NCBI RefSeq assembly: GCF_058153355.1
Contig: NZ_CM177019.1
Strand: one strand, 5' to 3'
Length of the DNA: 64,000 nucleotides
Part shown: one piece after another, positions 14,513 to 63,453 of the stretch
Position numbering within the stretch: the first letter of the stretch is position 1
Layout: every line of letters starts with the position of its first letter
Program-made: the position numbers and the translations under genes
Notes under the pieces: model-generated
What the model was told of the DNA's origin: nothing
What the model saw: the letters and a program-made list of their open reading frames with translations, nothing else
Database searches by the model: none

Positions 14513-14528
14513 ACTGTTCCTGAAAGAG

Positions 14529-15458
14529 TTAGAGAACGCTGAACAAATTCAACTCACTCACCTTCGAGTAAGTCTTGAGGGTAGCTTCCATTGCCACTTC
14601 CAGTCCGGTAAAGGTGATCGACGCCGGGCCGTAATCGAGATCCTGCAATGAACCAATCAACTCATCATTAGATGTCGAGATATCGGTCTGTGCATCGCTC
14701 AACATCGACATGGTGTTTTGTGTCTCGCCGAGCGACGCAATCGAGGCGTTGAGGTCGTCCGAGGCGGTGTCCACCACATTAACGGCGTTCTGAATATCGC
14801 TTTGTACCTGCGGATCTGCCGGGTCAACGTTAGGGTCTTGCAACTCCTGAGAGAGCGAATTGAGCGTGTTGAGTACATCTAAATTGCTGCCAAAGAAATC
14901 ACTCGCCGCCACGTTGGTATCTACTTCGACGCCGTTCGACACCGTAGTCTGGCGATGGTCGCTGTTACCCTGATAGCTGTAGCTATCGGTCACGCCATCA
15001 CCGTCATCGTCCACCGCCACAATCGGCGGTTGATCGTTGATGGTGCCGCCAAAGACGTAATTCCCGTCTTCATCCTGATAGTTGAGCGCCGCCACCATCG
15101 ATTCGGTGAGCGACTCAATATCCTGCCCAAGGCTTGCCAGCGAATTGGCGGTATTGGTGCCGTTCGCTGCTTCCAGCAGGTCGTCGCGCACCGCCAGCAG
15201 GCTGTTGTTGACGCCATCGAGAATCGACTCCTGCTGGCTTAAGCCCGCCGACGCGGAGTCGATATTGCTCTGATACTGCTCAATCGCCGACTGCTGGCGG
15301 TTCAACTGGGTGATTCGTGTGGCGGCGATAGGGTCATCTGATGGCTGCAAAATTTCCTTGCCGGTTGCCATCTGCTCGACCACGTGCGCCAGTTCGCCAG
15401 AAAGATTATTAAAGCTTTGCGTCATCGAGACGTAGGTTTGTTGAGTGGTTACTCGCAT
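14529..15458 (-). CDS. lfgL: FlgL-like hook-associated protein 3
   Basis: FlgL-like sequence; start chosen at MRVTTQQTY (the track ORF extends to 15482). Confidence 0.75.
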   Translation of the reverse strand: MRVTTQQTYVSMTQSFNNLSGELAHVVEQMATGKEILQPSDDPIAATRITQLNRQQSAIEQYQSNIDSASAGLSQQESILDGVNNSLLAVRDDLLEAANGTNTANSLASLGQDIESLTESMVAALNYQDEDGNYVFGGTINDQPPIVAVDDDGDGVTDSYSYQGNSDHRQTTVSNGVEVDTNVAASDFFGSNLDVLNTLNSLSQELQDPNVDPADPQVQSDIQNAVNVVDTASDDLNASIASLGETQNTMSMLSDAQTDISTSNDELIGSLQDLDYGPASITFTGLEVAMEATLKTYSKVSELNLFSVL

Positions 15459-15472
15459 TTTCGCGCTCCCGC

Positions 15473-16849: not shown

Positions 16850-17042
16850 GTTGGATCCTTACCGGTAAATCGTGCCGGTTAAAAGCGGCGTGAAGTTGGA
16901 GATTCTTAAGTTCCGTAAACCGGGCGCCAGACACCGGATGCAGCCTGCATACGGGCACAAACATAAAAATATGTGCGAACTCGTAGATACTGTTATGGCC
17001 TGCAAGTTTTTTTCTACCCCGGTTTCCCAGATTGCAGGCATG

Positions 17043-18269
<1,227 letters not shown>

Positions 18270-18307
18270 TGATAAGCGTAGCGCATCAGGCAATCTGGCA
18301 CCAGACA

Positions 18308-19021
18308 TCACGCCGCATCACTGTCGGCATCGGGTACGCCAAACTGGCTAATCATGGTGAACGGCACTTCGCCTACACCGGCAACGTTAAGCACCGGAGA
18401 GCTGCCGTCGAGCGGGATGCGCACATCTTCCACTTCGCCGGAGACTTCAATCGGTACTTCTTCTTCCCCGGTATTGGTCACCACCGAGACGTCGTAATCG
18501 CCCGGCGGGATGCCGTAATCCGCCGGGTTAATCGAGAAATCCACTTGGCCTGGCCCAACCGACGAACTCCCTTCCGGGATCAGCGAGACGGTGTAGTCAT
18601 CGCCCGCAGCATCGGTAAAGTGGAGATCGGCGGTGGTACAGGCGTCGTCCAGCGTGGCGCGACCGTTAATGGTCTGGTCACTCACCTGCAAGGCGGTGGT
18701 CTGCACCATAATGTCGTCGCCCACCAGGTTGCCGAGCGCCATCACCTGAATGTTGCTCATCAGCACCGCGTTGGTATTGGCCTGCACGCTCATCTCTTCC
18801 ATCATCGCCACCTGCGCCATCGACGAAAGCTGGTCGATATATTCGGTGGCATCGGTCGGGTCGGTCGGGTCCTGGTTTTGGATCTCAGCGACAAACAGCG
18901 TCAGGAAAGTATCGACGGGCGAGCTATCGCTGCTGCTTGTCGTGTCGCTGGCTGCCACATTATTGCTTTCCGCCGTGGCGGTCGGTTGCGGCGATTGCGC
19001 ATTCAGCGCCAGGGTATTCAT
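18308..19021 (-). CDS. lfgD: FlgD-like hook capping/scaffold protein
   Basis: 237-aa ORF with FlgD N-terminal motif (FLTLFVAEIQNQDPTDP) and C-terminal beta domain. Confidence 0.75.
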   Translation of the reverse strand: MNTLALNAQSPQPTATAESNNVAASDTTSSSDSSPVDTFLTLFVAEIQNQDPTDPTDATEYIDQLSSMAQVAMMEEMSVQANTNAVLMSNIQVMALGNLVGDDIMVQTTALQVSDQTINGRATLDDACTTADLHFTDAAGDDYTVSLIPEGSSSVGPGQVDFSINPADYGIPPGDYDVSVVTNTGEEEVPIEVSGEVEDVRIPLDGSSPVLNVAGVGEVPFTMISQFGVPDADSDAA

Positions 19022-19452
19022 CAGGCTTCTCCCAGTTTCAGCAGGCTTTGCTGCATACTTTTCACGTTGTTGAGCACATCGACGTTGGTTTCAAAATCGC
19101 GCGAGGCCGACATCATGTCCGCCATCTGTTCCACCACGTTGACGTCGGGATACCAGACATCACCGTTGGCATCCGCCAGCGGCGAATGCGGTTCATAGCG
19201 TTTCACCGCCCCGCCGGTTTGCAGCACGTCCTGCACCTGCACGCTGGCGCCGTCGATCGCATGGCGATGCGTTCCCGCCAGCAGGCTGTGGTGATACATC
19301 GCCGCAAACACCGGGCTGCGCGCTTTATACGCCTGCGCCTCGCTGCCGGCGGGCGCATTGGCATTCGCCAGGTTACTGGCAACGGTATTCAGGCGAATGG
19401 TTTGCGCCGTCATCGCCGAGCCGGAAATCTGATAGATATCAGTAAATGACAT
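19021..19452 (-). CDS. lfgC: FlgC-like proximal rod protein
   Basis: 143-aa ORF with FlgC-like N-terminus (ASNLANANAP) and rod C-terminal motif. Confidence 0.8.
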   Translation of the reverse strand: MSFTDIYQISGSAMTAQTIRLNTVASNLANANAPAGSEAQAYKARSPVFAAMYHHSLLAGTHRHAIDGASVQVQDVLQTGGAVKRYEPHSPLADANGDVWYPDVNVVEQMADMMSASRDFETNVDVLNNVKSMQQSLLKLGEA

Positions 19453-19454
19453 GC

Positions 19455-19766
19455 TTATTTCCCTTCAATGGCCTCTCTGATGCCGCTGATTTGCAGATTC
19501 AGAAAGGTCAGACTGCTTTGATAATCCATACTATTTTGTGAAAACCGCGCCTGTTCGCTGTTCAGTTCCACGGTGTTACCATCTTCCGACGGCTGCATCG
19601 GCACGCGATACTGGACATCCACCGCCGCGTTATTTGCCCGTTGCATCTCCCTGGCAAAATCAATATCTTTAGCCTTGAAATTTGGCGTATCGACATTCGC
19701 CAGATTCGCAGTCAGTAGCTCGGTCCTCTCAAGACGTAACTTCACTGCCTGCGGATGTACTCCCAA
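19455..19766 (-). CDS. lfgB: FlgB-like proximal rod protein (short)
   Basis: 103-aa ORF with FlgB-like motifs (ANLANVDTPNFKAKDIDF); in-frame stop 10 nt upstream limits its length. Confidence 0.7.
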   Translation of the reverse strand: MGVHPQAVKLRLERTELLTANLANVDTPNFKAKDIDFAREMQRANNAAVDVQYRVPMQPSEDGNTVELNSEQARFSQNSMDYQSSLTFLNLQISGIREAIEGK

Positions 19767-19871
19767 TGCTTATTGAAAACTGATCCCCATTTCTTGCGCC
19801 ACTCCCGCTTCAATCCGCATACGCTAAGCAATCGCTGCGCCAATTTTTAAGTAACTGATGAGAAAGGGTTT
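19767..19871. promoter_or_regulatory. Divergent intergenic control region between the rod/hook operon and the FlgA/FlgM/FlgN-like operon
   Basis: 105-bp gap between divergent operons; promoter elements not resolved. Confidence 0.3.
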
Positions 19872-20609
19872 ATGAGTTTTCAATTTTGCAGGCGGAAGTT
19901 TTATTTCCTCCTGGCGCTGGCCTTACCGGGCTACGCCGCCGTCCATCCCGTGCAACATAGCGCGCGGGAACAAGTCAACGCCCAGGTGCTGAGCGCCGCC
20001 AGCCAGCAGATTGAATCGCTGGCACAACAGCGGCAGTGGCATGACTATCGCTACACCTTTAAGGTCTACATTCCCTCGCAGATTGCGACCGCCGCGCCCT
20101 GCGCTACGGCCCCCGGCGTCACGCTGACTTCGCCTGCGGAAATCGCTCTCAACCGGATGAACTTCACCGTCAGTTGCCCGCAAAGCTGGCAGATGAACGT
20201 TGCGGTGCGCCCGGATGTTCTGGTGCCGGTGGTGATGGCGAAGTCACTGGTTGCCCGCGATACGCCGCTCACGGCAAATGATGTGGAGCTGAAGCCCTAC
20301 AACGTCAGCGCCCAGCGGCGGGATGTGCTGATGGATCTCAATGATGCGATTGGTTTAAGCAGCAAACATGCCCTGCAACCAGGCAGGCCGCTTACCAAAG
20401 AAGAACTGGTTTCGCCAGTGCTGATCGAGCGCGATCAGCCGGTGATGATTGTTTACCAGAGCGCGGGGATCACCGCCTCGATGCCCGGCGTGGCGCTGAA
20501 AAATGGTCGCAAAGGGGAAATGGTGAAAGTACGTAACGCCAGCAGCCAGCGGGTCATTAGCGCAATAGTGGCGGAAAGCGGCGTGGTGACAACGGTAAGC
20601 GCGGAGTAA
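19872..20609 (+). CDS. lfgA: FlgA-like P-ring assembly chaperone
   Basis: 245-aa ORF with signal peptide and FlgA-like C-terminal domain. Confidence 0.75.
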   Translation: MSFQFCRRKFYFLLALALPGYAAVHPVQHSAREQVNAQVLSAASQQIESLAQQRQWHDYRYTFKVYIPSQIATAAPCATAPGVTLTSPAEIALNRMNFTVSCPQSWQMNVAVRPDVLVPVVMAKSLVARDTPLTANDVELKPYNVSAQRRDVLMDLNDAIGLSSKHALQPGRPLTKEELVSPVLIERDQPVMIVYQSAGITASMPGVALKNGRKGEMVKVRNASSQRVISAIVAESGVVTTVSAE

Positions 20610-40363: not shown

Positions 40364-40663
40364 ATGACGTCATGGATTGATAGTATGATTAAGGTCAGCG
40401 CGCTAGGCTCTCGTCATAGAAAAACATTCGACGATGTAATGACGGAGCCGCCAAAATCTGGAATTAAATGGGATGATGTTGTTGCTCTCATTAAAGCGGT
40501 GGGTGGATCAATAAAAAATAACAACGGCTCCAGACGAAAATTTCAGATTGGAACGACCAAATTCAGCACACATGAGCCGCATCCAAAGAATGTGATGGAT
40601 AAAGGCGCAGTAGCAGGTCTTAAGGAGTGGTTTGTTAACTGTGTAGGGGTAGATTATGAATAA
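40364..40663 (+). CDS. Putative HicA-like toxin
   Basis: Small ORF 8 nt-overlapped with a HicB-like gene; His/Lys pattern GSRRKFQIGTTKFSTHEPHPKN; start may be internal (~40439). Confidence 0.45.
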   Translation: MTSWIDSMIKVSALGSRHRKTFDDVMTEPPKSGIKWDDVVALIKAVGGSIKNNNGSRRKFQIGTTKFSTHEPHPKNVMDKGAVAGLKEWFVNCVGVDYE

Positions 40664-41012
40664 AGCATCGAACATTATCACAATTAAAGGTCAACCAGCC
40701 GCAGTGACATTTGAAGCCGATATCAACGCATTTCGCGGCAAGTTCCTCAATGTAAACGGTTATTGTGACTTTGTAGCCACAAGTATTGAGGCATTATATC
40801 GTGAAGGCGAAAGCGCTCTGGATGAGTGGATGGCGGATTGTGAAGAGGACGGTATTGCCCCTTTTCGTGAAGAAGAAGAGCAAAAACGCCTGACGCTTCG
40901 TGTGCCGCATCACATCGATTCGCGGCTGACCATCGTCGCCAGACAACATTCCATTTCAAAAAACCAGCTCATTATTGATGTCTTAGAACGTGAGTTTTCA
41001 GCCCAGATGTAA
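40656..41012 (+). CDS. Putative HicB-like antitoxin with C-terminal ribbon-helix-helix
   Basis: 118-aa ORF; C-terminal RVPHHIDSRLTIVARQHSISKNQLI resembles an RHH DNA-binding motif. Confidence 0.55.
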   Translation: MNKASNIITIKGQPAAVTFEADINAFRGKFLNVNGYCDFVATSIEALYREGESALDEWMADCEEDGIAPFREEEEQKRLTLRVPHHIDSRLTIVARQHSISKNQLIIDVLEREFSAQM

Positions 41013-41993: not shown

Positions 41994-42254
41994 ATGGCTG
42001 CTAACGCGTTTGTTCGCGCCCGAATCGATGAAGATCTGAAGAATCAGGCGGCGGACGTACTGGCCGGGATGGGGCTGACCATCTCTGACCTGGTTCGCAT
42101 AACCCTCACAAAAGTCGCGCATGAAAAGGCATTGCCGTTTGATTTACGCGAGCCTAATCAATTAACCATTCAATCAATTAAAAACAGCGAAGCTGGCGTT
42201 GATGTTCATAAGGCCAAAGACGCCGATGATTTATTTGATCAATTAGGAATTTAA
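41994..42254 (+). CDS. dinJ: DinJ antitoxin
   Basis: 86-aa ORF MAANAFVRARIDEDLKNQA... Confidence 0.9.
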   Translation: MAANAFVRARIDEDLKNQAADVLAGMGLTISDLVRITLTKVAHEKALPFDLREPNQLTIQSIKNSEAGVDVHKAKDADDLFDQLGI

Positions 42255-42256
42255 AT

Positions 42257-42535
42257 ATGATTCAAAGGGATATTGAATACTCGGGACAATTTTCAAAGGA
42301 TGTAAAACTTGCACAAAAGCGTCATAAGGATATGAATAAATTGAAATATCTTATGACGCTTCTTATCAATAATACTTTACCACTTCCAGCTGTTTATAAA
42401 GACCACCCGCTGCAAGGTTCATGGAAAGGTTATCGCGATGCTCATGTTGAACCGGACTGGATCCTGATTTACAAACTTACCGATAAACTTTTACGATTTG
42501 AGAGAACTGGAACTCACGCGGCGCTATTTGGGTAA
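42257..42535 (+). CDS. yafQ: YafQ toxin (RelE-family mRNA interferase)
   Basis: 92-aa ORF immediately after dinJ. Confidence 0.9.
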   Translation: MIQRDIEYSGQFSKDVKLAQKRHKDMNKLKYLMTLLINNTLPLPAVYKDHPLQGSWKGYRDAHVEPDWILIYKLTDKLLRFERTGTHAALFG

Positions 42536-47679: not shown

Positions 47680-48153
47680 TTATTTAAAATTAAAGCCATC
47701 CGGATGATTTTCCAGGCTGCCGGTCAACGCCGCGAATAGCACCGTTTTACCATCAATCGAAAGCGCATCATTCACATTCAACCAGGTGAGTTTCTCTTGC
47801 GAGGTTTTCTCATCAATGGTCGAGAACAGCCCCGTCATCTGATTAGATTTCTCGGACCACATCACAGCGATACGTTGCGAGCCACAGTCATGCGGTTTGC
47901 ACGCGCTCATCACCTGATACGTCTCATCTCCCAATGTCACGGTTTGTGCGGGGGTATAAGTACCGCCTTTCATCACCCAGGCAGGCAGCTTATGCCCTTG
48001 CACCATCTGACTAAACGCAGCTTTGGTGGTTTCGCCCTTTGCAAGGCTGCTAATGGTTAAATCATCCTGCGCCATTGCACTGGTGGCGATGACCAGTGCG
48101 GCGACTGTCGTTATTGCCTTAAACATCATTCCTCCCGAGCTTATCCTGCCCAT
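47680..48153 (-). CDS. ivy: Inhibitor of vertebrate C-type lysozyme
   Basis: 157-aa ORF with signal peptide and conserved CKPHDCG loop. Confidence 0.9.
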   Translation of the reverse strand: MGRISSGGMMFKAITTVAALVIATSAMAQDDLTISSLAKGETTKAAFSQMVQGHKLPAWVMKGGTYTPAQTVTLGDETYQVMSACKPHDCGSQRIAVMWSEKSNQMTGLFSTIDEKTSQEKLTWLNVNDALSIDGKTVLFAALTGSLENHPDGFNFK

Positions 48154-50799: not shown

Positions 50800-51340
50800 T
50801 GCTAGTGCAATTTATTCTCCACTTGCCAGTGATTTCGGTTCGCTGTGGCGAACTTCTCTGCGGTTAAATCAGCAGAAATGCTAAAATATCTGACCGTCAT
50901 TTCGGGATTTTTCTTTTGTTCTGCTATTATTGAGCGAAATGAGACTGCCATGCATAATTTCTTCAGCCCTTTCCATTCAAACGTAAAATCAATAAATTCA
51001 TCAGGGACATCGCAAATAATATGAAGACGGATTTTAATGACATAAATCGCTCCCTTGCGGCGACTCTTGTCATAAGAGTGCCGAAGCGTTTTTCCATCAA
51101 TTGCAATGACATCTTTATCATCTGAGGAATGGCAGTCACGCATCCAGTTAATAAAGCACTCATGAAATTTTGCAGGACTGATACAGGATACAACTCTGGC
51201 AATGATATCGTGAATAGGAATACCATTTTCAAAATCACCATATCACTTCAAAAAATCGGGATGTGTTTCCCCAAATCCTCTATATCTTCCCAGCCTTATG
51301 CACCAGAAATAACGGCGCAAATAGTTAACAGATAGAATAT
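50800..51340 (-). mobile_element. ISAs1-family (H-repeat) transposase remnant with internal deletion
   Basis: Fragments with [19 protein letters not shown] and C-terminal [11 protein letters not shown] motifs, out of frame. Confidence 0.7.
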
Positions 51341-51683
51341 CTGGCAATTTATGCTCCACTTTCCAGGCTTGCCTGTAATCGGGGATAATAGAAATATGTT
51401 CCATCAATTTTTTAAGTTCCATTTTGTCCCCCTTAATTATGCAATGAGTATTTGATCATGTATAAGCAATGAAAAACAGCTTTAGGTAATAAGGAACACC
51501 TCAATTATTGAACATAAAATGCGAATTATTTAGTACAAAAAAAGCAGCATTAAGTGAGTAGGCCACCGGAACCTCCCCGACAGCCTCTCGCAGAACCGTA
51601 CGTGAAACTCTCGCTTCATACGGCTCCCGTCAGGCAAACGCGCTTCCTGGTCCTGCTTTCCAGTGGGCAAACAACTCCGGCTT

Positions 51684-52955
51684 CTATTTTGACAGCCTTT
51701 CCATTAGCTGACACGCCTTCGTCTTTCTATACCGCAGGGTTTTATATTTCTTTCTCGCCCACGCAATCAGCGTCAGATTAATATATCTGCATACTTTCTT
51801 CATCGCTGATTTGTGGTATCTCGCGTAATAATTCAGCCACCCCGATATTATCGGATTCAGCCACTTCGCAATATCTTCGAGACTCATCTCCACCCTGCGT
51901 CTGATCCACTGTTTCCTGAGTTTTCCAATCATGCCTTTCTGCGCACGGTTACTCGCCGCCGGGCTGAAACTCGTAAAGAGGTTTCCCCGCCGGTGGTTAC
52001 GTGCTCTTCGCGCTCTGAACGTATACCCCAGAAAATCAAACTGCACTGTTTCATGGTTCGCCTGTCGTTCGCTGTCTTTGCAGTAAACTATTTTCGTTTT
52101 CTCCGGATGTAATTCCAGTCCACATTCCTGAAAACGTTTTGCCAGCTTATTCAGTAATTCCTCTGCCTGTTGTTTACTGCCACAATGAATTAATCCATCA
52201 TCTGCATAACGGCACCAGGGAATTTCCGGATAATGTAACGTCAGCCATTTATCAAACACATAGTGCAGAAATAAATTCGCCAGTACCGGGCTGATGACTC
52301 CACCCTGTGGCGTACCTTTATTTCTTTCCTTCAGTGTTCCATCCGGCATCTGCACCGGCGCTGTCAGCCACCGGCGAATAGACAGTCTTACCCATTTATC
52401 CGCACAATGTTTATCTACTGCCCTGAGTAATAAATCGTGGGAGATATTATCGAATAACCCTTTAATATCAAACTCAAGACACCAGTCGTATTGCCAGCAA
52501 CGTTTTCTGGTGACTGCTATTGCATCCAGCGCTGATTTTCCATGCCGGTATCCGTATGAATCATTCAGGAAATAACGCTCCACTAATGGTTCAAACGTTA
52601 CCAGCACCGTCATCTGCGCTATTCGATCGCTTACTGTCGGTATTCCTAAAAGTCTTTTGCTGCCATCCTTCTTCGGAATTTCCACCGCACGCACTGGCGG
52701 CGGCATCCAGCTTCCCGACGATAACCTGTTCCAGATTTTGTACAGATTTCCTTTCAGATCCCGCTCAAAATCTTTCAGCGTCTGGTTATCCACTCCGGCA
52801 GCTCCGGCATTCGCCTTTATCCGCCGGTACGCTTCCACCACATGCAATTTACTGACCTGAAACGGTTTTGTCTGTTCACACACAGCCTCCTCCTGCCTAC
52901 AGTTGGGCTGTGATGCAGACTGCCCGACGCTGTCCCTTCGCTCCACGTTCATTAC
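51684..52955 (-). CDS. Group II intron-encoded reverse transcriptase/maturase
   Basis: RT motifs (LLGIPTVSDRIAQ, YADDGLI) and maturase X region; start set at MNVERRD because the upstream in-frame extension runs into the IS21 terminus. Confidence 0.85.
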   Translation of the reverse strand, partial: VMNVERRDSVGQSASQPNCRQEEAVCEQTKPFQVSKLHVVEAYRRIKANAGAAGVDNQTLKDFERDLKGNLYKIWNRLSSGSWMPPPVRAVEIPKKDGSKRLLGIPTVSDRIAQMTVLVTFEPLVERYFLNDSYGYRHGKSALDAIAVTRKRCWQYDWCLEFDIKGLFDNISHDLLLRAVDKHCADKWVRLSIRRWLTAPVQMPDGTLKERNKGTPQGGVISPVLANLFLHYVFDKWLTLHYPEIPWCRYADDGLIHCGSKQQAEELLNKLAKRFQECGLELHPEKTKIVYCKDSERQANHETVQFDFLGYTFRARRARNHRRGNLFTSFSPAASNRAQKGMIGKLRKQWIRRRVEMSLEDIAKWLNPIISGWLNYYARYHKSAMKKVCRYINLTLIAWARKKYKTLRYRKTKACQLMERLSK

Positions 52956-53153
52956 AAACGCTTCCTCACTACTACGAACAGCTCTGCCCCGGTTTCGCAC
53001 ATCGATACTCTCATACTCATAATTTCGGTTATTTGTATTTCTCTCTTGACATTGCGACGACCGGTTCCCGTAGTTCCTGCAAAGAGCCTGATATGTCAAC
53101 GCCACGATTTTTAACCGTTATTTGCCATTTTCATGCCCGCTAAGATACTTTCG

Positions 53154-55123
<1,970 letters not shown>

Positions 55124-55574
55124 GTTGATGTCCTTTCTGGTGTGGGAACCTTAAGGAAACAACATGTTGGGTGGAGCGGACAATCCAAATGGCGAATTAC
55201 CGTCTTATATCACTGGCGCTGACAGATACAGCGTCATGCCTGCTATACACCGGACACCATTCACGCAGCATTCGGAATTCACCCGTAAATTAATCCCGGC
55301 GGTATCACGAAACCTCCGGTTTTGATGTCACTTAGGACTAACGACGTTTCAACACAGGTTCGGGTTTACTCATCTCACTGTATCTCACATAGGATCAGAT
55401 CTCGTCTGATCGTTCCCCCTGCGCTCACTACCATGGCTCTTTACCACAGCAGCCGGGGTTGTTTGGGACCGACTTCCGACAGCAGATCCCGGTGGGCCTG
55501 CCACCATCTCTTCACAAGCTTATGCTTATTACATGCAAAACGTCCCGTTTTGCATCTTTGTGCCTACGGCACAC

Positions 55575-55899
55575 CGTGATCTTTCCCTGGACTCGATTTC
55601 GGTTTTGAAGGCGCTTCTATGCCCATAATATCCGGCGCTGAGATAAAAAAGCTATGGCACTGCACACAATGTACAACATGCTGGCTATAACTGTTTTTAA
55701 ACCTGTAGCCCTGATAACCAAATTCATTTGCCGGGCGCTCACAGCATGAACATTTTTCCTGAACTATTTCTGGTTCAGTCATATAAGGAGCAACAACATG
55801 AGTCAGTGATTTATATACCAGCTCAACAGGATGAGTTGTTATATCGACTTCGGAAATATTCATATTATTAATTCTCCAGACATTTTTAATTATAATCAA
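55575..55899 (-). CDS. Hypothetical Cys-rich small protein whose 3' end abuts the group II intron 5' boundary
   Basis: ORF with CSCCERP...CVQCH cysteine pattern; reading frame runs into the putative intron start. Confidence 0.3.
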
Positions 55900-56046
55900 T
55901 GATGGTTTTGTGCGAGTAGCAAGAAATTTCTTTATGTTTTTTTCAGGTACTTTAAGACGAACCTAACAATTCCAATGTAAAAATTAATTATCATGCTGAC
56001 TTTAGATCTACATACATCAGCACTGATACTCACTGTAATGAGTGAG

Positions 56047-56649
56047 TTATTTATCATAATTTCTCAATTGCACAGCATCACAAAGATGTTCATTTTTTAT
56101 ATCATACGAATATTCTACTTCACTACCATCATCACATTTTTTTGGCTGTGAAAAAGCATGAATTATAATATTTTCGCCATGAGAGTCGCATTCATTTTGA
56201 AGTATATCCATATCTTCCTGTGAATATGCCTGCATATAACTATATGGATTTTTTAGAATTTCAGACAACGGGAAAACATCCTCTTTCAATGAAATAGAGT
56301 CACCCAATGCCAGTAATTTATAATAATAATCTTTATCACCACCTTCTAAATCCCATGTAAAAAGGAATTGTCCCTCATCCCAGAACACTATTGCATTACG
56401 TTCTCCAGTGGCCCAGTTAAGACCCAGCATACAGAAATTATTTTTTAAATAATTCTTTTTATATAACAATAATAAATATCTTAAAGATTCTTCATAATGA
56501 CTTCTGTAAGGATCTTTCATGGTAACATGAAAGTATGATTCAGGTTTATCCCTAAATATTCCGAAACCGGGGGATTCAGGCAATGGTTTCGATAACGCTT
56601 CACCTGCAAACATGAATAAAACAGACAATATGATACTTCTGATTTTCAT
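56047..56649 (-). CDS. Hypothetical secreted protein (candidate immunity protein)
   Basis: 200-aa ORF with signal peptide MKIRSIILSVLFMFAGEALS; AT-rich; 4-bp overlap with the upstream ORF. Confidence 0.45.
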   Translation of the reverse strand: MKIRSIILSVLFMFAGEALSKPLPESPGFGIFRDKPESYFHVTMKDPYRSHYEESLRYLLLLYKKNYLKNNFCMLGLNWATGERNAIVFWDEGQFLFTWDLEGGDKDYYYKLLALGDSISLKEDVFPLSEILKNPYSYMQAYSQEDMDILQNECDSHGENIIIHAFSQPKKCDDGSEVEYSYDIKNEHLCDAVQLRNYDK

Positions 56650-57566
56650 TTCTTTTTTCTCTGGTTCGGGTCATCAATAAATGACTGTTCCAACCCATAG
56701 AAATCCTGACCAGCCAGACTAAATATTAATTTAAAATTATTGCCAGGGGATGATTTCCCCTGGGTTCTCCAGGCATAAACATCTTTAATATGTGGCAATG
56801 AAGAGTAGAGTTCTTTACCTCTTGCAATATCAATAGAATATTTTATTAACCGCCTATTTTCTAAAAAATATTTATTTTGTCCAATATTAGCGTTCTTAAT
56901 AAGATCATCTATATGGTCATCGACATCTTTTCTTAAACCTGGATAATTACTAAATCCGGCAATAACTCTTTCCACTCTAATCAGTCCCACTAATGTTTTA
57001 TTATTAGAGGGAACATCAAGACGATCAGGGCGAGAGAAAGTAAAACGATTTAATAACGCACGTCGCATATATTGCATTGATTTTATCGCGTCTTTTTCAT
57101 TATACTTTTCCCCACGAGTTAAAGGGGTTTTCGTCTCAGCCAGTAAGACCATTAGCATGGCTCGTTCACTCTCCGAAAGACCATCTGCGAGTGTTTCTCT
57201 TTTTATTTTACTAAGGACATTAACAGTTAAAGTTGGAAAACAATTTTTATATACTCCTCCAACTGTTGCCGGGCAATGCCCCAGATATGCTCCAGATGAA
57301 CTGGCGCTATCATAGGCATGAATGGTAGCGATTCCCAATCCTTTTGCCCGGACAACTATAGTTTGCTCCAGTTGTCCTGTTCTGGAAGACTGCTCAATTG
57401 ATAAAATACCGGGGCGAGATGATGCCAATTTTAGATGCTGACCTTTGGCATCAAACCCTCTTATCTTAATACGAAAAACATCCTTATCAGTCATATAATA
57501 AAAAAATTTATTCAATGCTGTTTTTGAGTCCGAGTTTGGACTAATGAAAATTTCACCATTCGCCAT
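56646..57566 (-). CDS. Hypothetical protein (candidate orphan effector)
   Basis: ORF of about 306-339 aa, AT-rich; start uncertain between 57566 and 57665. Confidence 0.4.
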   Translation of the reverse strand: MANGEIFISPNSDSKTALNKFFYYMTDKDVFRIKIRGFDAKGQHLKLASSRPGILSIEQSSRTGQLEQTIVVRAKGLGIATIHAYDSASSSGAYLGHCPATVGGVYKNCFPTLTVNVLSKIKRETLADGLSESERAMLMVLLAETKTPLTRGEKYNEKDAIKSMQYMRRALLNRFTFSRPDRLDVPSNNKTLVGLIRVERVIAGFSNYPGLRKDVDDHIDDLIKNANIGQNKYFLENRRLIKYSIDIARGKELYSSLPHIKDVYAWRTQGKSSPGNNFKLIFSLAGQDFYGLEQSFIDDPNQRKKK

Positions 57567-57763
57567 TATGTACCTCACAAAAAACAATATAAAAATTGCG
57601 ATAAAGTATTCAATATGTTGATTCCCGTTATTGCAGGTAATATTCCTGCTCAATAAATGCACCAATCACTTTGTCGTGCATTTCTGTGGATTTCGAATAC
57701 CTCAGTGTCTTCCGGTCGAGTCGTTTCAGGCTGTTCCCAGGGCGAGAGCATGCTTTTGCCCTA

Positions 57764-58414
57764 TCACCTAATACAGAATCGATCATCTGAAACATATTCA
57801 CCCATCGCTACCTTATCGCCTAATTTTATTTTTTGCTCCCTGAGTAATCGATTGATATTTCCATCATAACAAAATTTTTTTTGTCTGCTATCAAAATAAT
57901 AATATTCATCCATCATCACTTCAAATTGCTCTCCATTTTGAGGGCCTATATAGCCCAACACACCTTTAATCCATATTTTATCTTCAACATGAGTAAAAGA
58001 TATTTTTTTAAAACCAATGCAAGGAGAGTAATCATTAAAAAAATAACCTTCAAATGGTTTATTTGAGACTATTATTCTTTTATCTGGAGTAAATATAGCA
58101 ATGTTGCATCTCTGAAAATCATCTTGGACAACACCTTTAATTTTATTACTATATACAAACGGTACAATGTAATATCCATTTCCTTTACTTATCTCTCTTA
58201 TTTGATCTTCATATATATATATATTATCATATTTATCTATATGCTTCCGAGTGTAATAGATATAAGAAAGTGGCTCCAAAGCATATTTTTGCTCAACAAA
58301 GCATCTTATTTCCTTCTCAATTTCACTGTAATCAACAGATAACATAGCATAACAATGCGTATAGCAAATTAGCATCAATGTGCTAACACTGCCTCGTATA
58401 ATCAATGACAACAT
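57764..58414 (-). CDS. Hypothetical protein with N-terminal hydrophobic segment (candidate immunity protein)
   Basis: 216-aa AT-rich ORF immediately downstream of the GH19-like gene. Confidence 0.4.
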   Translation of the reverse strand: MLSLIIRGSVSTLMLICYTHCYAMLSVDYSEIEKEIRCFVEQKYALEPLSYIYYTRKHIDKYDNIYIYEDQIREISKGNGYYIVPFVYSNKIKGVVQDDFQRCNIAIFTPDKRIIVSNKPFEGYFFNDYSPCIGFKKISFTHVEDKIWIKGVLGYIGPQNGEQFEVMMDEYYYFDSRQKKFCYDGNINRLLREQKIKLGDKVAMGEYVSDDRFCIR

Positions 58415-59408
58415 TCACCTCCTGCCTATTTCGTGTGATTTGGATAGTCTCTGTTTGCGTGTTAATAACATCATCAGAAAGAAATTTATATGTATATCTA
58501 GAGAATGCTTGCCGCTCAAAATATTGGAAACCACCACCATTTACCAACTTAGAACAAAGACCTATTGATTCTGTATTAATTCCGGAATCACAACATCTAT
58601 TAATATTAACTATTGATGGTTCTTCACTATTGACTCTATATTGTTTAGAAACCCAAAAGAAACCAGCCGAATCAGTTGATAAATATTCACTAGAGGATAT
58701 CATATTAGGGTCATAATAAGGATACCAAATTTTATTTAATGTACCATCAATATAAACCTCCGTTCTCCCTGTTTGTCTGTTTCTTCTTGTTCTTCTTGGA
58801 TCACCCCAATAATGCAAGGAGTCATGTGTTATTCTATTATCTGTATAACTCTCACTCTGATTTAAATTAGAAAGAACCAGATCACTTTGGAATTTTTTAT
58901 ACTCTTCGTAATTACCAGCCCATGTTAATTGCATCATACCTCTACCATAAAACACTTGATAATACTCCATTGCAGGCGCAGTCCAGGTTCCATCATTTTT
59001 GGGATATCCCCGACCAAACTCTGTCATTGTTCGCATCATCGCTGTTTCGGTATATATTTGCCCAAGATATAAACCTTTTCTATTAGCATTAAGAATTAAG
59101 TATTTATTACAGCATCGGTTAAAATGTTTATAGTAGCTCTCCCACCGAGATTTTGCAGATTGAAAAGAAATAGAGTCAGTTTGGGGATCTCCTGGATATC
59201 CAGCATAATAAACGCGAGGTAATAATGACGCAACTTCATCTAAAGCCAGCCATCCACATTTCCTGAAATGGCTAATGAATGTCCTGGGGTCAAAATGCCA
59301 TACTCTTCCTGCGGGTAAATCACCGCTAATGCATAATGCCCTGGCATGAGCCAGAAGTTTATCCCAGTCTGGCCTTTTCATCGGTTTTGCGGCTAAACTC
59401 ATCCTCAC
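58383..59408 (-). CDS. GH19-like (chitinase/lysozyme-family) putative peptidoglycan hydrolase, candidate T6SS effector
   Basis: Motif FYGRGMMQLTWAGNYEEY closely resembles the GH19 signature FYGRGPIQLSWNYNY; downstream of vgrG. Confidence 0.55.
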   Translation of the reverse strand: MRMSLAAKPMKRPDWDKLLAHARALCISGDLPAGRVWHFDPRTFISHFRKCGWLALDEVASLLPRVYYAGYPGDPQTDSISFQSAKSRWESYYKHFNRCCNKYLILNANRKGLYLGQIYTETAMMRTMTEFGRGYPKNDGTWTAPAMEYYQVFYGRGMMQLTWAGNYEEYKKFQSDLVLSNLNQSESYTDNRITHDSLHYWGDPRRTRRNRQTGRTEVYIDGTLNKIWYPYYDPNMISSSEYLSTDSAGFFWVSKQYRVNSEEPSIVNINRCCDSGINTESIGLCSKLVNGGGFQYFERQAFSRYTYKFLSDDVINTQTETIQITRNRQEVNVVIDYTRQC

Positions 59409-60660
59409 CGTCTACCAGAAGCCAGTTAAAACGCTCCTCCAGTGAGGAGGCCTCCCATTCCTGATTGAAATGGCAAATAGCTCGCTGGCAACTACTGGCA
59501 AAATGTTTACTTCCTTTCCAGTTATTTATTGTGTCAGAATGACACTGACTGTCGTGAACAGAGTCATCATCCACCAGTCTCCATCCCATCCAGTGTGGAA
59601 AATCTCCGTCACTGTATTTTTTTATATTCGGATCAGCCAGATTTACCACTCCATGCCCCCCCGGATAATTTACTGTTCGCCAGAGCGGTGCATTGGATGG
59701 CGTCAATACCTCATGTTCACTATTAATCACCCGACCAAAGCGTAATAACTCAAATCCGGAACTGGGTCTCTGCGGATATAACTTCATTGCTGTTTTATAA
59801 AGATTATACTCATATTTATCACCGTCTTTATTAATCAATGCCTCGCCTACAGTTTCATATACATACTCATCTATCTCACCCTCACTCACTTCTTTTTTCA
59901 TTCTCGTCACCATCTCACAGTTTCCAGTATCAAATTTCATAGTAACGAACAACGGAAACATGCTGGTATAAACCGGTGACAAACCAGTGGTTTCAGCACT
60001 GTTATTTTCTGGTATCTTATCGTAGAAAATTGTGTCTACTGGTAAGTAGAAATGTATATCACCATACACAACTTCAGTTCTACCATCTTTTGTCAAATCA
60101 GTTTCTGGTTCCAGTTCTTCTCTACCTGTCAGCTTCTTTGTGTTTTCATCATCACTGAATATCTGGAAATGAAACTCTTTATCGCCATCTGCCAGGCCTG
60201 GTGTCCCTAACACATCCTTTCTGTATATCTTACTTCCCTGAGTCACTCTCCCCTCAATCTCATTCAGGTGCATATACACCGACCAGTATGTAACCTTCCC
60301 GGATTCGCCGTCACCTATTTCCGTTTCGTGTTTTATTACTACACATCCATCATCTGTTGGGCCGTTATAATTAAGCGGTGCTGAATCTCGTTTTTCAACC
60401 GATGAAGGCGTTCGGACATAAACAACTGTTCCGTCTGCAATTGCTCTGATTTTATCCTCTGCATTCGTGTACGAAATATGAATGCCGCCATGCCAGGAGC
60501 CTCGTAAATTTATAGGGTAATTTCTGAACTGATCAACTGGCATCATCCAGTCAATCCATGACTCATCAATCCCACTATTATTGGGATGAGTTAAAAAAGG
60601 AGGGCTAATTATCATTTTTAGTGTACCTTTATTAAAAAAGATAATGTAATGCTGGTACAT
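59359..60660 (-). CDS. Putative T6SS-associated protein with peptidase M23-like motifs
   Basis: 433-aa ORF directly after vgrG; WHGGIHIS and EFHFQIF segments loosely resemble M23 metal-binding motifs; assignment tentative. Confidence 0.35.
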   Translation of the reverse strand: MYQHYIIFFNKGTLKMIISPPFLTHPNNSGIDESWIDWMMPVDQFRNYPINLRGSWHGGIHISYTNAEDKIRAIADGTVVYVRTPSSVEKRDSAPLNYNGPTDDGCVVIKHETEIGDGESGKVTYWSVYMHLNEIEGRVTQGSKIYRKDVLGTPGLADGDKEFHFQIFSDDENTKKLTGREELEPETDLTKDGRTEVVYGDIHFYLPVDTIFYDKIPENNSAETTGLSPVYTSMFPLFVTMKFDTGNCEMVTRMKKEVSEGEIDEYVYETVGEALINKDGDKYEYNLYKTAMKLYPQRPSSGFELLRFGRVINSEHEVLTPSNAPLWRTVNYPGGHGVVNLADPNIKKYSDGDFPHWMGWRLVDDDSVHDSQCHSDTINNWKGSKHFASSCQRAICHFNQEWEASSLEERFNWLLVDGEDEFSRKTDEKARLG

Positions 60661-60681
60661 TATCTGTTTAAATAGTTTTTA

Positions 60682-62718
60682 TTACGAAAATATGAAGTTC
60701 GCAGTCGTATCGTCATCAGCCTCTGGCACTTTCAGCGCCGCCGGTTGCAGCGTCGGCACGGGTGTCCCCGGACTTCCCCCACCGTTCAGGTTTATCTTCG
60801 GCCCCACGATATCCACGCCACCAGAATGAACGACAACGAACGAGCCGCCCACCTTCAGGGTGATTTTACCGCCGCTCTCCAGTACGATTTCATCCCGGAC
60901 CTTCATTCCCAGCGCGCCGGTAATTTTCCTCGCCAGGTCGCCTTTCACCTCCAGACTGTGTTTCCCCTCCACGAGGCTAATGTGGTTTCCTGTCGTCTTG
61001 TGCTCCTGCTTCCCTTCCACCGTCACCTTTCGGTCATTTTTTACATACAGACCGTCATCGTGGCTGACGTTCACCCGCCGGTCGTTCGTCACCTTCAGCG
61101 TCTGGTCATTGCGCACCGTGATGCTCCGGTTGTGGGCCACCGTGATGGTCTGGTCGTGCCCCCCGGCATTCTCTTTCCCCACCGTCACCGTCTGGCCCAG
61201 CCCCACGGTGATTTTCTGGTTGTTCCCGATGGTCTCCGTGTGGTCATGCTTCACGTCCGTTGTCCGGTCGTTGAGCACCTCCGTGTCCATGTTCTTCTGC
61301 GCGTGGATATAGACCTGCTCATTACTGGTGGCGTCCTCGAACCGCAATTCGTTAAAGCCGCTTCCTTTATAGGTCTTCGACCGTATCGTCATCTGCGTCT
61401 TCGTGCCCGGTAAATCCCCCGGTGAACGGTTGTCCTCATGGTAGGTGCGTCCCGTGACGATGGGCTGGTCCGGGTCCCCGTTCAGAAAGTCCACTATCAC
61501 TTCCTGACCCACACGCGGTATCGCCAGATTACCGAACCCCGCTCCCGCCCACGCCTGCGACACCCGTATCCAGCATGAACTCTCCTCCGTCATCCCGTGA
61601 TAACGGTCCCAGTGAAACTTCACCCGCACCCGTCCATGTTCGTCGCAGAATATCTCCTCGCCCTTCGGCCCGGTCACGATGGCACTCTGCGGGCCGTCCA
61701 CCTTCGGCTTCGGTAGCGGCGCGTGACGCCACGTCCTGTCCGCCGGTATCACCTCAAACTGGTTACTCAGCGTCGTTCCTTCACCGTGACTGCCGTGCAG
61801 CGCCTGCGGCTGTTCCCCCAGCAGCGTGCTTCCCACAACCTGCCATTCACGGTTCAGCGTCTCCGCACCACTCCGCCAGCCTTCCGTCTGGTAACGCGCA
61901 AAGTCCTGCCCGTGCTGCTCATCCTTGAAACGCCCCGGATAATCAAATATCTCGTACTGCGTTCCCTGTCCGTTCAGGCTCTCCCCGTCATGGCTGTAGT
62001 ACCCCGGCCACCCCGGCACTTTAAACGTATAATCCTGCGTCTCCACCGACGCCACGCTTATCTGCGCACGGTAACGAAACTCGCTGATGTACTCCGTCTT
62101 TCCCCCGGTCGTCGTGTTCGGGTTAAACGCCAGCGTTCCCATTCCCGTCAGCCCCGCCACGTCATCACACACCGCCAGCTTCTGCTCCGGCCCTTCCTGA
62201 CCGCAGCGCTCATAAAAGAAGATACCTTCCTCCGCCCACAGCCGGGTCAGGAATGCCAGGTCGCTCTCCCCGTACTGCACGCAGAACTCCCGCGCCGGGT
62301 GCGCCTCATAGAACAGCGGCATCCACGCCGTCACCCCGTTCTCTCTCAGAAGCTGTGCTGATATCGTCTGAATGTCCTGCTGCTGGAAGATACGGAAGTT
62401 CTGCCGTAACCCTGCCCGCCACAGCGGCGGGCTGATGCTCAGGGAATAACGCATCTGCCAGTCGTTGTTCTCACCGAGCTGCACCTCCGTCACGATACCG
62501 CTGACGTAACGCTGCGGGATATCACCCTGCCAGACCGTCAGCACCGCGCTCTTCTCCAGAAAATCTTCTGCCGTCAGGTCAGACAGTCCGCTGGCGATAT
62601 CCACATCCAGGATGAACGGTGTGCAGTGGTGCTGGTACAGACGGAAGCTCACCACCGCCGTCGCCATCTCCACAATACCGTCCACCGACAGCGTGAAACG
62701 TAATCCTTCTGAGGACAT
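60682..62718 (-). CDS. vgrG: Type VI secretion spike protein VgrG
   Basis: 678-aa ORF with gp27/gp5-like VgrG sequence and C-terminal beta-helix repeats. Confidence 0.9.
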   Translation of the reverse strand: MSSEGLRFTLSVDGIVEMATAVVSFRLYQHHCTPFILDVDIASGLSDLTAEDFLEKSAVLTVWQGDIPQRYVSGIVTEVQLGENNDWQMRYSLSISPPLWRAGLRQNFRIFQQQDIQTISAQLLRENGVTAWMPLFYEAHPAREFCVQYGESDLAFLTRLWAEEGIFFYERCGQEGPEQKLAVCDDVAGLTGMGTLAFNPNTTTGGKTEYISEFRYRAQISVASVETQDYTFKVPGWPGYYSHDGESLNGQGTQYEIFDYPGRFKDEQHGQDFARYQTEGWRSGAETLNREWQVVGSTLLGEQPQALHGSHGEGTTLSNQFEVIPADRTWRHAPLPKPKVDGPQSAIVTGPKGEEIFCDEHGRVRVKFHWDRYHGMTEESSCWIRVSQAWAGAGFGNLAIPRVGQEVIVDFLNGDPDQPIVTGRTYHEDNRSPGDLPGTKTQMTIRSKTYKGSGFNELRFEDATSNEQVYIHAQKNMDTEVLNDRTTDVKHDHTETIGNNQKITVGLGQTVTVGKENAGGHDQTITVAHNRSITVRNDQTLKVTNDRRVNVSHDDGLYVKNDRKVTVEGKQEHKTTGNHISLVEGKHSLEVKGDLARKITGALGMKVRDEIVLESGGKITLKVGGSFVVVHSGGVDIVGPKINLNGGGSPGTPVPTLQPAALKVPEADDDTTANFIFS

Positions 62719-62934
62719 ATGACCTCCCTTGATTCACTTACAGAACACTGGTTGTCTACTGACCATGCAGCAGAGGGTGCCAGTACAGCGTTACGCTCAT
62801 ATTCAGGTACGCTACCGCCCGGGTTCCCGGCATCCACCATCTCCCTCATGAAAGCGTAACTCCTTACTGACACTCATTTTTTACACGTACAAAAACAACA
62901 TCCTGCACTAAGGCAGGATGTTGTTGACTCAGAT

Positions 62935-63453
62935 TTATGCTTCCAGCGGTGCACGCCAGTCATCGGCACCAGAAGTACCGGATTTGATGTGCTCCCACTC
63001 AACCTTACGGTAGGCCAGTGATACTGCGAGCAATTGCGTAAACTCACGCTGTGCAGGGTCCTGGCAGTGCGGCATATGCAGGTTCATGTCCACAATCGTC
63101 GCGTCAGTAAGACGTGTGGTGAAGTAGTGCTCCTGCTTGCCTTCAACAGAGGTACGCCACCAGTGCAGCTCCACTTTCGGCAGCATTTCACCGGAGGCCA
63201 GCGCGTTGTACAGCAGCGGAACGGCTTTGTTCAGCGCCACGGTGAAAATGAACGGTTTGTGAGCACGCTGCCCGGAAGGCTGACCAGACTGCGGATCGGT
63301 TGGAACAGTAACGTTATGCAGAAACTCCTGCACCAGCATTTCATCTTCGTGTCCCTGCACGTAGATATTGCCGACAGAATCTGCGGTGAAAGCACCGGCA
63401 GTGATGTTCCCCTGGGTCTGACCTGTAATTGAAATGTAACATGGGGTTGGCAT
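62935..63453 (-). CDS. hcp: Type VI secretion tube protein Hcp
   Basis: 172-aa ORF with Hcp-family sequence directly upstream of vgrG. Confidence 0.9.
   Translation of the reverse strand: MPTPCYISITGQTQGNITAGAFTADSVGNIYVQGHEDEMLVQEFLHNVTVPTDPQSGQPSGQRAHKPFIFTVALNKAVPLLYNALASGEMLPKVELHWWRTSVEGKQEHYFTTRLTDATIVDMNLHMPHCQDPAQREFTQLLAVSLAYRKVEWEHIKSGTSGADDWRAPLEA

Follow-up and report, generated by a model that had tools for sequence, protein, structure and literature searches.

The AT-rich genes that follow hcp and vgrG at this locus raise the question of whether they form an array of T6SS effectors with their immunity genes and, if so, whether that array is still armed. A preliminary description of the window, a stretch of 64,000 nucleotides, had taken a peptidase-like protein and a GH19 protein to be two effectors and had proposed an effector–immunity array. 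Our overall reading, which we consider quite probable, is that this is the cargo end of a T6SS in which an effector of the WHIX/TseP class has been frameshifted, with ORF216 as its immunity gene and ORF306 and ORF200 as a second pair. The island is an ordinary effector–immunity array, built from known kinds. The proposed array stands in so far as the cargo includes a predicted peptidoglycan-targeting effector and candidate immunity genes, but it is partly decayed here and not fully armed. What (modest) interest it has comes mainly from the family of ORF306 and from the series of decay stages.

All the ORFs described are present at the coordinates given here and, like the other features below, they lie on the minus strand. 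The hcp gene (tssD; 62935..63453) encodes a T6SS tube protein of 172 aa (NCBIfam TIGR03344, E 3.4e-62) and has about 95% nucleotide identity with E. coli hcp, and vgrG (tssI; 60682..62718) encodes a spike protein of 678 aa (TIGR03361, E 6.9e-161); the two genes lie on one strand with the ORFs that follow them. In a 99.9% identical contig (L002), tssB, tssC, tssE, tssF, tssG and tagH lie directly to the right of hcp, where T6SS core genes had been expected. The GC content drops from 0.53–0.62 in vgrG to 0.29–0.44 over 55.5–60.5 kb, and the 3′ end of vgrG (60682–60743) is unmatched in the vgrG gene of E. coli of the LF82 type, whose cargo is different. VgrG terminates in a cargo-specific C-terminal tail, ...TTANFIFS, whose NFIFS resembles the NFSFS (...SSNFSFS) of the VgrG upstream of a homologous effector in another locus, L001. 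WHIX effectors are loaded at the VgrG C-terminal tail (PMC12135965) and, by analogy, the ...TTANFIFS tail may play a role in effector loading here. We propose that we are looking at the variable end, given over to cargo, of a T6SS cluster on an Escherichia chromosome, with a single polymorphic cargo effector placed after Hcp and VgrG.

The boundary element of the island (51061..55589) is a group II intron with an IS21-type insertion inside it, as recognized from Rfam matches (RF01999 at 55388–55505 and RF00029 at 51553–51628), from its ORFs and from colinearity. It includes an intron reverse-transcriptase ORF at 51684–53105 and an insertion of 2131 bp (53094–55224) which carries istA/istB, and it is colinear with L008 except for 53094–55224. 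The segment 55225–55589, beside ORF111, shows 100% identity with a sequence that flanks an intron in E. coli FDAARGOS_1284. ORF111 itself (55564..55899), a Cys-rich ORF of 99 aa from MNISEV, enters the intron at its 3′ end and gave no match in the family search or the PHROG search.

The two ORFs that follow vgrG, of 433 aa (59359–60660) and 341 aa (58383–59408), are fragments of one gene; they are read in different frames and share 50 nt. When a 726-aa homolog from L001 is used in tblastn, the match passes from frame -2 into frame -3. Extensions at the N-terminus of homologs of the 341-aa ORF match the 433-aa ORF at its C-terminal end, and the full-length relatives of the effector are about 720–730 aa long. 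An intact allele (P0267), present in one other assembly (L009), is a single ORF of 759 aa with 97% identity, and its alignment with P0136 runs from one end to the other (E 9e-144). Once repaired, the gene (58383..60615) would encode a single WHIX-GH19 effector of about 744 aa. It starts 67 nt past the vgrG stop, and the same arrangement of vgrG and then effector is found in L001. The supposed peptidase and GH19 protein are the two halves of this one gene.

The peptidase-like call for the first half survives a profile search: residues 57–171 of the 433-aa ORF match Pfam Peptidase_M23 (PF01551; E 2.7e-6), as do 8 of the 59 relatives at E<=0.001. This M23-like core, WHIX region 1, lies at 60150..60560. 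Numbered from MIISPPFL, it includes W41-H42-x3-H46, supplied by SWHGGIH, as well as H116 (YMHL) and H149 (FHFQIF). W41, H42 and H46 occupy the same positions in the reference WHIX protein WP_005373349.1, and the motif residues of region 1 are nearly invariant in our alignment of the family (A4). BLASTP to region 1 of the reference gave E 3e-4, and hhalign of the family profile against WP_005373349.1 gave a probability of 97.6% (E 3.2e-12, 101 columns). For WHIX region 2, hhalign gave a probability of 1.4% (E 0.038) against residues 247–452 of this single reference, the comparison covering it up to residue 452. WP_129563892.1, a member of the P0136 cluster (at least 90%), is included both in the WHIX tree that has been published and in its C-terminal set; among the closest Enterobacterales relatives, six accessions are missing there.

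A canonical M23 endopeptidase was considered and rejected. On reading the sequence, HxxxH (H42...H46) stands in place of the canonical HxxxD, and E-F-H (EFHFQIF) in place of HxH; this is the motif set of the WHIX/TseP-N variant, and the N-terminal domain is thus not filed as a canonical M23 endopeptidase. In TseP, the HxxxH variant supports a Zn-dependent amidase activity (PMC11893102). Judged by its motifs and profiles, the effector is a member of the WHIX/TseP class, described in 2025. The earlier view that the components are not standard named effectors consequently does not extend to it but stands for ORF306 and ORF200, which are uncharacterised.

The second half, or C-terminal toxin domain (58386..59231), had been credited with a strong GH19 signature. 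This is not what Pfam returns, since the GH19 matches had E-values of 0.36 and 0.25 and spanned just 26 residues, and none of the 59 relatives matched at E<=0.001. The assignment held, however, when family profiles and predicted structures were used. The profile of the domain family matched GH19 endolysins among PDB sequences at E 4e-20 to 1e-6 (9ms7, 4.3e-20; 9hnv, 1.5e-10; 8xcl, 9e-9; 4ok7, 4.5e-6) together with many GH19 chitinases. An AlphaFold model of the domain has a pLDDT of 94, and Foldseek ranks 1–12 are all GH19 endolysins or chitinases, including TseP-C (8xcl), with probabilities of 0.80–1.00 and target-normalised TM-scores of 0.51–0.66. The putative catalytic residues E62 and E71 form a TE-x8-E motif followed by GRGMMQLTW, and in the PWe2 endolysin their aligned counterparts are HE-x8-E and GRGLIQIT. 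Across 59 sequences no variation is seen at E62, E71, G96, R97, G98, Q101 or T103; W104, N231, G232, G233 and R240 are further invariant residues. About 100 residues of the domain are insertions, in the form of a beta-rich segment and a C-terminal hairpin. The 131 representative homologs of the domain are mostly the C-termini of proteins of 700–880 aa. According to these profiles and models, it is a GH19-type fold, lysozyme/muramidase-like, belonging to a divergent clade that Pfam misses.

Directly 3′ of the effector, and overlapping its end by 32 nt, is ORF216 (57764..58414). It is 94% identical to a 216-aa gene beside the intact allele in L009 and has weak homology (E 2e-6) with the gene that comes next to the corresponding orphan toxin cassette of L001, on its downstream side; family and PHROG searches with ORF216 gave no match. 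Signal peptides had been attributed to two of the downstream ORFs. From a hydropathy heuristic and reading of the sequences, that of ORF200 is classical, whereas the N-terminus of ORF216 is hydrophobic but weaker. Its position and homology suggest that ORF216 is likely to be the cognate periplasmic immunity protein of the effector, a candidate for protection against the GH19-like domain. It is intact in the window; its counterpart is frameshifted in L002 and L003.

The lesion that splits the effector maps to 59385..59391 when the DNA of the window is aligned (A3) with that of L002 and with L009, whose allele is intact; the deletion is at about 59388. The window reads AGCCGC^AAAACCG and the intact allele AGCCGCAGAAAACCG: the two nucleotides AG are missing. 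Apart from the frameshift, both fragments are free of stop codons. The break falls about 60 residues short of the end of the WHIX-conserved region, as judged from the family consensus, and inspection of the sequence upstream of GTG 59408, ATG 59402 and ATG 59381 found no Shine-Dalgarno at proper spacing. Because the break is inside WHIX and the downstream piece lacks a usable ribosome-binding site, the gene would most likely be a recent pseudogene, and because the deletion splits the effector within this domain, the weapon is most likely disarmed. The split gene is not necessarily dead.

The two ORFs might instead be separate functional effectors, a 433-aa M23 peptidase and a 341-aa GH19 lysozyme, naturally split into a WHIX protein and a hydrolase with translation and delivery of their own. 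WHIX proteins with no C-terminal extension, located upstream of a separate peptidoglycan-hydrolase gene, have been described (PMC12135965), both ORFs are open, and the GenBank annotation is of two proteins. We nevertheless judge this unlikely since the 97% identical allele is a single ORF that differs at the junction only by the 2-bp deletion and since the cut is made inside the WHIX-conserved region, away from a domain boundary. The long overlap and the poorly furnished start of the downstream ORF also argue against it, as does the decay of the cognate immunity gene in sister genomes.

It is considerably less likely again that the frameshifted gene still yields some full-length toxin by +1 slippage of tRNA-Lys on CGC-AAA-A, which would keep immunity necessary. 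The geometry of the site would permit perfect re-pairing in the +1 frame (AAA again, then CCG), and the window has an intact immunity gene; but in sister genomes that share the deletion this gene has been lost without apparent harm, and the retention of ORF216 is equally explicable as a defence against kin with an intact allele. Moreover, spontaneous slippage at runs of four A residues is only very low. Slightly more doubtful still is a sequencing or assembly error in a gene that is intact in the organism. The site adjoins such a run and an intact allele is known elsewhere, but the lesion is a loss of AG which leaves the homopolymer length unchanged. The window shares the identical deletion with GCA_015332025.1 and with the Logan assembly of SRR34880751, which is independent, and the 418-aa product is also called in another GenBank TPA entry. 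Least credible of all is that the AT-rich genes are a phage lysis or endolysin remnant and not T6SS cargo: the C-terminal domain does match PHROG endolysin families (E 1.6e-8) and the structures of GH19 phage endolysins, but both here and in relatives it is fused to a loading module of the WHIX type that comes directly after vgrG, it shares only a catalytic fold with endolysins, and PHROG returned only endolysin-type catalytic domains and no other phage family for any ORF; these are not phage or structural genes.

Beyond the frameshifted effector and ORF216 lies a candidate for a second, independent and conserved effector–immunity pair, of predicted lytic-transglycosylase type. ORF306 (56646..57566), the candidate effector, had been listed with 339 aa from an upstream TTG and has 306 aa from its likely start. 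It has only 11 sequence homologs; Pfam gave no match in any of these 11 members, and comparison with PDB sequences gave none for ORF306, the SleB similarity being undetected at the sequence level. Its predicted fold includes an N-terminal Ig-like domain and a C-terminal SleB-like lytic-transglycosylase domain, without a signal peptide. Its AFDB relatives also point to SleB at the level of the fold, the C-terminal half of the model may match the catalytic domain of Bacillus SleB (4fet, 4f55) structurally, and in the model the invariant E144 (LLAE) would occupy the expected position of the catalytic Glu. The genes for ORF306 homologs are found in the context of PAAR genes and of a pyocin-S/immunity array; in Xenorhabdus, PAAR is a separate neighbouring gene.

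ORF200 (56047..56649) is a candidate for the periplasmic protein that would confer immunity to ORF306; its gene shares 4 nt with the end of ORF306, stop codon included, and its signal sequence is MKIRSIILSVLFMFAGEALS. An ORF200 homolog is found after every ORF306 homolog examined, with identities of 75%, 50% and 24–27% (E down to 1e-12), and all these homologs have hydrophobic N-termini. A precedent for ORF306 is T6EC3 of Acinetobacter rudis, a PAAR-fused SleB-like T6SS toxin (Mol Syst Biol 2024; PMC11148199). Tentatively, and with slightly less than an even chance of being right, ORF306/ORF200 may represent a new stand-alone family of T6SS cargo in which an Ig-like adaptor to the PAAR/VgrG tip is joined to a SleB-like lytic-transglycosylase toxin undetectable by sequence models, with a dedicated periplasmic immunity protein and a thin, probably horizontal spread in Escherichia, Salmonella, Xenorhabdus and, at the fold level, many other Proteobacteria.

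These elements can be assembled into a provisional mechanism. The identities of the genes, their fusion and frameshift, the predicted folds and the co-conservation are observed, whereas VgrG loading, the specificity of the enzymes, immunity and the loss of function are inferred. In its intact form, the WHxxxH M23-like domain of the effector would cap the C-terminal tail of VgrG, the spike carrying the protein along when fired, and the GH19-type domain would then cut the glycan strands of the target peptidoglycan in the periplasm. The N-terminal domain of TseP is, in addition, a Zn-dependent peptidoglycan amidase (PMC11893102). Exported ORF216 would shield the producer and its kin from within the periplasm. 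The 2-bp deletion inside WHIX leaves effector fragments of 418 aa (59359–60615, from MIISPPFL) and roughly 340 aa, the immunity gene being kept. ORF306 would probably be delivered via PAAR or the VgrG tip, and ORF200, in the periplasm, would provide immunity to it.

The closest known systems are the WHIX-domain T6SS effectors described by Fridman et al. (PLoS Biol 2025; PMC12135965) and TseP of Aeromonas dhakensis described by Wang et al. (eLife 2025; PMC11893102), for which a structure of TseP-C (8xcl) is available. The window gene resembles WHIX subclass I in the position of WHxxxH, in its location directly after vgrG, in its "chitinase-like" C-terminal domain, predicted to target peptidoglycan, and in the downstream gene with a signal sequence; a full-length homolog, WP_129563892.1, belongs to the published dataset. 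It differs from this subclass in being broken by a 2-bp deletion inside WHIX. In contrast to the Vibrio WHIX reference, its M23-like core is contiguous, without an insertion of roughly 145 residues, and is therefore detected by Pfam M23, while its C-terminal domain belongs to the divergent GH19 clade with large insertions missed by Pfam. Like TseP, it is chimeric, with an N-terminal domain that has HxxxH and downstream His residues (in TseP, a Zn amidase with a structural or loading role), a GH19-like lysozyme domain at the C-terminus, predicted carriage by VgrG and parts of unlike GC content. Unlike TseP, the window gene is frameshifted, and its identity with TseP-C is low, about 14% in a structural alignment.

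The C-terminal domain shares with chitinases and with GH19 phage endolysins (PWe2, 9ms7; SPN1S, 4ok7; Pseudomonas, 9eoi) the catalytic fold, Glu-x8-Glu, GRG-x-x-Q-L/I-T and NGG; it differs from them by about 100 extra residues, with TM-scores of only 0.5–0.66, and in belonging to a T6SS effector, not to a lysis gene of a phage. The modelled ORF306 is similarly comparable to T6EC3/SleB in the fold tentatively predicted for its C-terminal half, in the invariant E144 at the putative catalytic position and in having a partner with a periplasmic signal, but it differs from T6EC3 in being a stand-alone cargo with an N-terminal Ig-like domain and not a PAAR fusion.

All relevant ORFs between 55.5 and 63.5 kb are carried by the minus strand. 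They begin with hcp (62935-63453) and vgrG (60682-62718), identified with NCBIfam E values of 3e-62 and 7e-161 respectively, and GC content drops from 0.53–0.62 in vgrG to 0.29–0.44 in the cargo genes, which bears out the preliminary description of an hcp-vgrG pair followed by AT-rich ORFs on the same strand. These two genes alone were identified by NCBIfam in the region, none of the six cargo ORFs giving a match. The latter, as called, are a 433-aa ORF (59359-60660), a 341-aa ORF in another frame (58383-59408) which overlaps it by 50 nt, ORF216 (57764-58414), ORF339 (56646-57665; called ORF306 below, since it has 306 aa when counted from MANGE, a conserved start at 57566), ORF200 (56047-56649) and ORF111 (55564-55899). 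T6SS core genes had been suggested for location to the right of the window; in a near-identical contig, tssB, tssC, tssE, tssF, tssG and tagH are found to the right of hcp.

The 433-aa and 341-aa ORFs were initially taken for two candidate effectors, one peptidase-like and the other GH19-like. Both likenesses stand, their number does not: they are one frameshifted gene. For the 341-aa ORF, a word-indexed search yielded just 2 relatives, and the N-terminal extensions of both match the last third of the 433-aa ORF. Relatives of the 433-aa ORF, from Enterobacter, Hafnia, Pantoea and Klebsiella, are typically 720–730 aa long. In locus L001 (GCA_050770495.1), a 726-aa protein encoded directly after vgrG matches window frame -2 over residues 1–399 (56% identity) and goes on in frame -3. 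An intact 759-aa allele, P0267 (Logan run SRR24146912), also clusters with the 433-aa protein at 90%. Alignment of the DNA at the junction reveals a 2-bp deletion at about position 59388: AGCCGC--AAAACCG in the window and in a GCA_015332025.1 contig (L002) corresponds to AGCCGCAGAAAACCG in the intact allele. Dropping one A of the A4 run restores the frame and yields 743 aa from MIISPPFL; the intact allele has 744 aa from this same start. Given the intact allele and the lesion at the junction, two independent effectors are rejected. A sequencing error is also rejected, since the identical lesion occurs in GCA_015332025.1 and in SRR34880751 (L003), a Logan assembly made independently, each 99.9% identical to the window; the deletion is real. 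This corrects the GenBank annotation, in which a single frameshifted WHIX-GH19 effector figures as an "M23 family metallopeptidase" and a "hypothetical protein".

The N-terminus of this effector matches Pfam M23 (E 2.7e-6). On reading the sequence, the canonical M23 motifs HxxxD and HxH become HxxxH and ExH, and a WHxxxH motif is present as SWHGGIH. Such a variant is the signature of WHIX, a T6SS loading module which caps the VgrG C-terminal tail (PMC12135965). Compared to a reference WHIX sequence taken from the AlphaFold file of that paper, the effector gave a BLASTP E value of 3e-4, and hhalign aligned the family profile with reference region 1 at a probability of 97.6% (E 3e-12), positions W41, H42 and H46 being identical; no significant hhalign match of WHIX region 2 to this single reference sequence was found. 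No accession of the window protein or of the Enterobacterales relatives closest to it turned up in the supplementary tables or the tree of the WHIX dataset, and membership in the WHIX class was instead tied through WP_129563892.1. This protein is present in the published tree and falls in the cluster, at 90% or more, of P0136, a relative which aligns end to end with P0267 (E 9e-144). From these comparisons we conclude that the effector probably belongs to WHIX subclass I. Several full-length WHIX-GH19 homologs carry the public labels "hydroxyethylthiazole kinase" or "Pyocin R, lytic enzyme", which are evidently propagated misannotations.

The C-terminal domain (58386-59231) is less readily recognized. 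Pfam GH19 gave no significant match with the window protein or any of 59 relatives, and single-sequence searches of PDB sequences with each fragment returned chance matches only. The 2 matches of the word-indexed search made the domain seem nearly unique; an exhaustive search of representatives raised the number of relatives to 131, most of which form the C-terminal end of proteins of 700–880 aa. The family alignment includes an E-x8-E pair, GRG..Q.TW and NGG, all invariant. Against the PDB, the family profile matched GH19 endolysins (PWe2, E 4e-20; 9hnv, 1.5e-10; SPN1S, 4.5e-6), TseP-C (8xcl, E 9e-9) and many GH19 chitinases. Each of the 12 best PDB matches of the AlphaFold model (pLDDT 94) belongs to GH19; insertions of about 100 residues keep the TM-scores moderate. 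The early GH19 call was therefore correct in substance, by profile and by fold, if not at the level of Pfam significance: the domain is a divergent GH19 clade missed by standard profile searches, a toxin-domain clade of about 130 representative clusters invisible to Pfam. It is also matched by PHROG endolysin families. A phage origin of the cargo genes, named in the preliminary description as an outcome that would refute it, was nevertheless rejected since there was no other phage family match and the domain is fused to a WHIX module directly after vgrG.

In the WHIX-conserved region (WHFxPxxFIxHFRKCGWL), about 60 residues still follow the deletion, which thus leaves a complete loading domain in neither fragment. 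For none of the possible starts of the downstream fragment (GTG 59408, ATG 59402, ATG 59381) was a Shine-Dalgarno sequence found at normal spacing. ORF216, the candidate immunity gene for the GH19-like domain, directly follows the effector gene. Its product has a moderately hydrophobic N-terminus and gives a weak but significant match (E 2e-6) to that of the gene after a homologous orphan toxin cassette in L001. ORF216 is intact in the window and beside the intact effector allele (locus L009), and carries a 2-bp deletion at window positions 58211-58212 in L002 and L003, with a further 1-bp deletion at 57875 in L003. We infer that the effector was probably inactivated recently and the immunity gene retained. 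The effector frameshift and ORF216 deletion shared by L002 and L003 indicate that the module as a whole is decaying in that lineage. Together these give a three-step decay series (two intact genes; a broken effector beside a kept immunity gene; two broken genes), informative for the loss of T6SS arsenals and the persistence of orphan immunity genes.

In L001 (7254-12674), the 726-aa full-length WHIX effector has a more canonical GH19-like C-terminus and a 155-aa immunity gene, followed by the orphan cassette, P0001. This begins within WHIX region 2 and carries a window-type C-domain and two signal-peptide genes of its own. The cassette looks like displaced C-terminal modules in the style of Rhs/CDI systems, an arrangement not mentioned in the part of PMC12135965 consulted.

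ORF306 and ORF200 form a second candidate effector/immunity pair. A search of 5.8 billion proteins found only 11 sequence homologs of ORF306, which come from E. coli, Salmonella Ceyco and Xenorhabdus. Every homolog examined is followed by a relative of ORF200, itself a protein with a clear signal sequence; the homologs occur with a PAAR gene in Xenorhabdus and with PAAR and a pyocin-S DNase/immunity array in Salmonella. Neither ORF306 nor any of its relatives matched Pfam, no SleB match was found among PDB sequences with the ORF306 family profile, and ORF200 proved dissimilar to the second of the downstream genes in L001. The two-domain architecture of ORF306 recurs in full in about 20 AFDB proteins, two of them named SleB-domain proteins. 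The invariant glutamate E144 (in MVLLAE) is plausibly catalytic. ORF306 is a candidate cargo-type lytic-transglycosylase effector and ORF200 its candidate immunity protein; the pair may represent a new family of peptidoglycan-lytic effectors and would be cheap to test.

The last cargo ORF, ORF111 (99–111 aa), is Cys-rich (CSCCERP...HCVQCH), with no family match found, and its 3′ end enters a group II intron, so that it could be either a gene cut short or the target of the intron. This intron forms the left end of the island and, with its insert, covers 51061-55589 on the minus strand, as judged from Rfam matches, ORFs and colinearity. It includes domains D1–D4 (55388-55505; RF01999), a reverse-transcriptase ORF (51684-53105) and domain V/VI (51553-51628; RF00029), and is split by an IS21-type element of 2131 bp (53094-55224, from colinearity) with istA (53951-55123) and istB (53154-53954), all on the minus strand; E. 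coli FDAARGOS_1284 has an uninterrupted intron at the same place. No tRNA gene was found at the island boundary (47–56.5 kb). Past the intron, the core DNA of E. coli follows, with yafL to fadE, ivy and yafV. The hicA/hicB and dinJ/yafQ toxin-antitoxin genes of E. coli 95-3322 have colinear counterparts here in small ORF pairs at 40364-41012 and 41994-42535 (plus strand), and the lysozyme-inhibitor gene ivy is nearby (about 47680-48153). LF82-type E. coli have a longer VgrG and other cargo at the same location. When the 8-kb region was compared with 5,426 complete E. coli genomes, matches were confined to hcp-vgrG and the flank of the intron, and the cargo module was found in none at megablast sensitivity. 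The flanking core DNA is only about 95–96% identical to typical E. coli. Positions 1-20000 carry a lateral-flagella (Flag-2-like) cluster with fliF, fliI, flgK, fliD and a glycosyltransferase; here the best complete E. coli genomes are only about 94.6% identical and most records 90–95%. The source may be a divergent lineage of Escherichia under the label E. coli.

The T6SS effector-immunity array is thus genuine but ordinary, the preliminary interpretation of it is borne out in part, and none of these findings overturns current T6SS biology. The main effector, frameshifted here, falls in the WHIX/TseP class described in 2025, contrary to the initial impression that no standard named effectors were present. 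ORF306/ORF200 is uncharacterised, yet its kind is already known: T6EC3 is a PAAR-fused SleB-like T6SS toxin with validated toxicity (PMC11148199). The tails of the two VgrG proteins paired with the effector clade end in ...NFIFS (window 60682-60800, minus strand) and ...NFSFS (L001), and that of Aeromonas VgrG4, to which WHIX binds, ends in ...KVSFSGR; they may share a WHIX-docking motif. The WHxxxH N-domain of the effector corresponds to that of TseP, TseP-N, which is additionally a Zn-dependent peptidoglycan amidase (PMC11893102).
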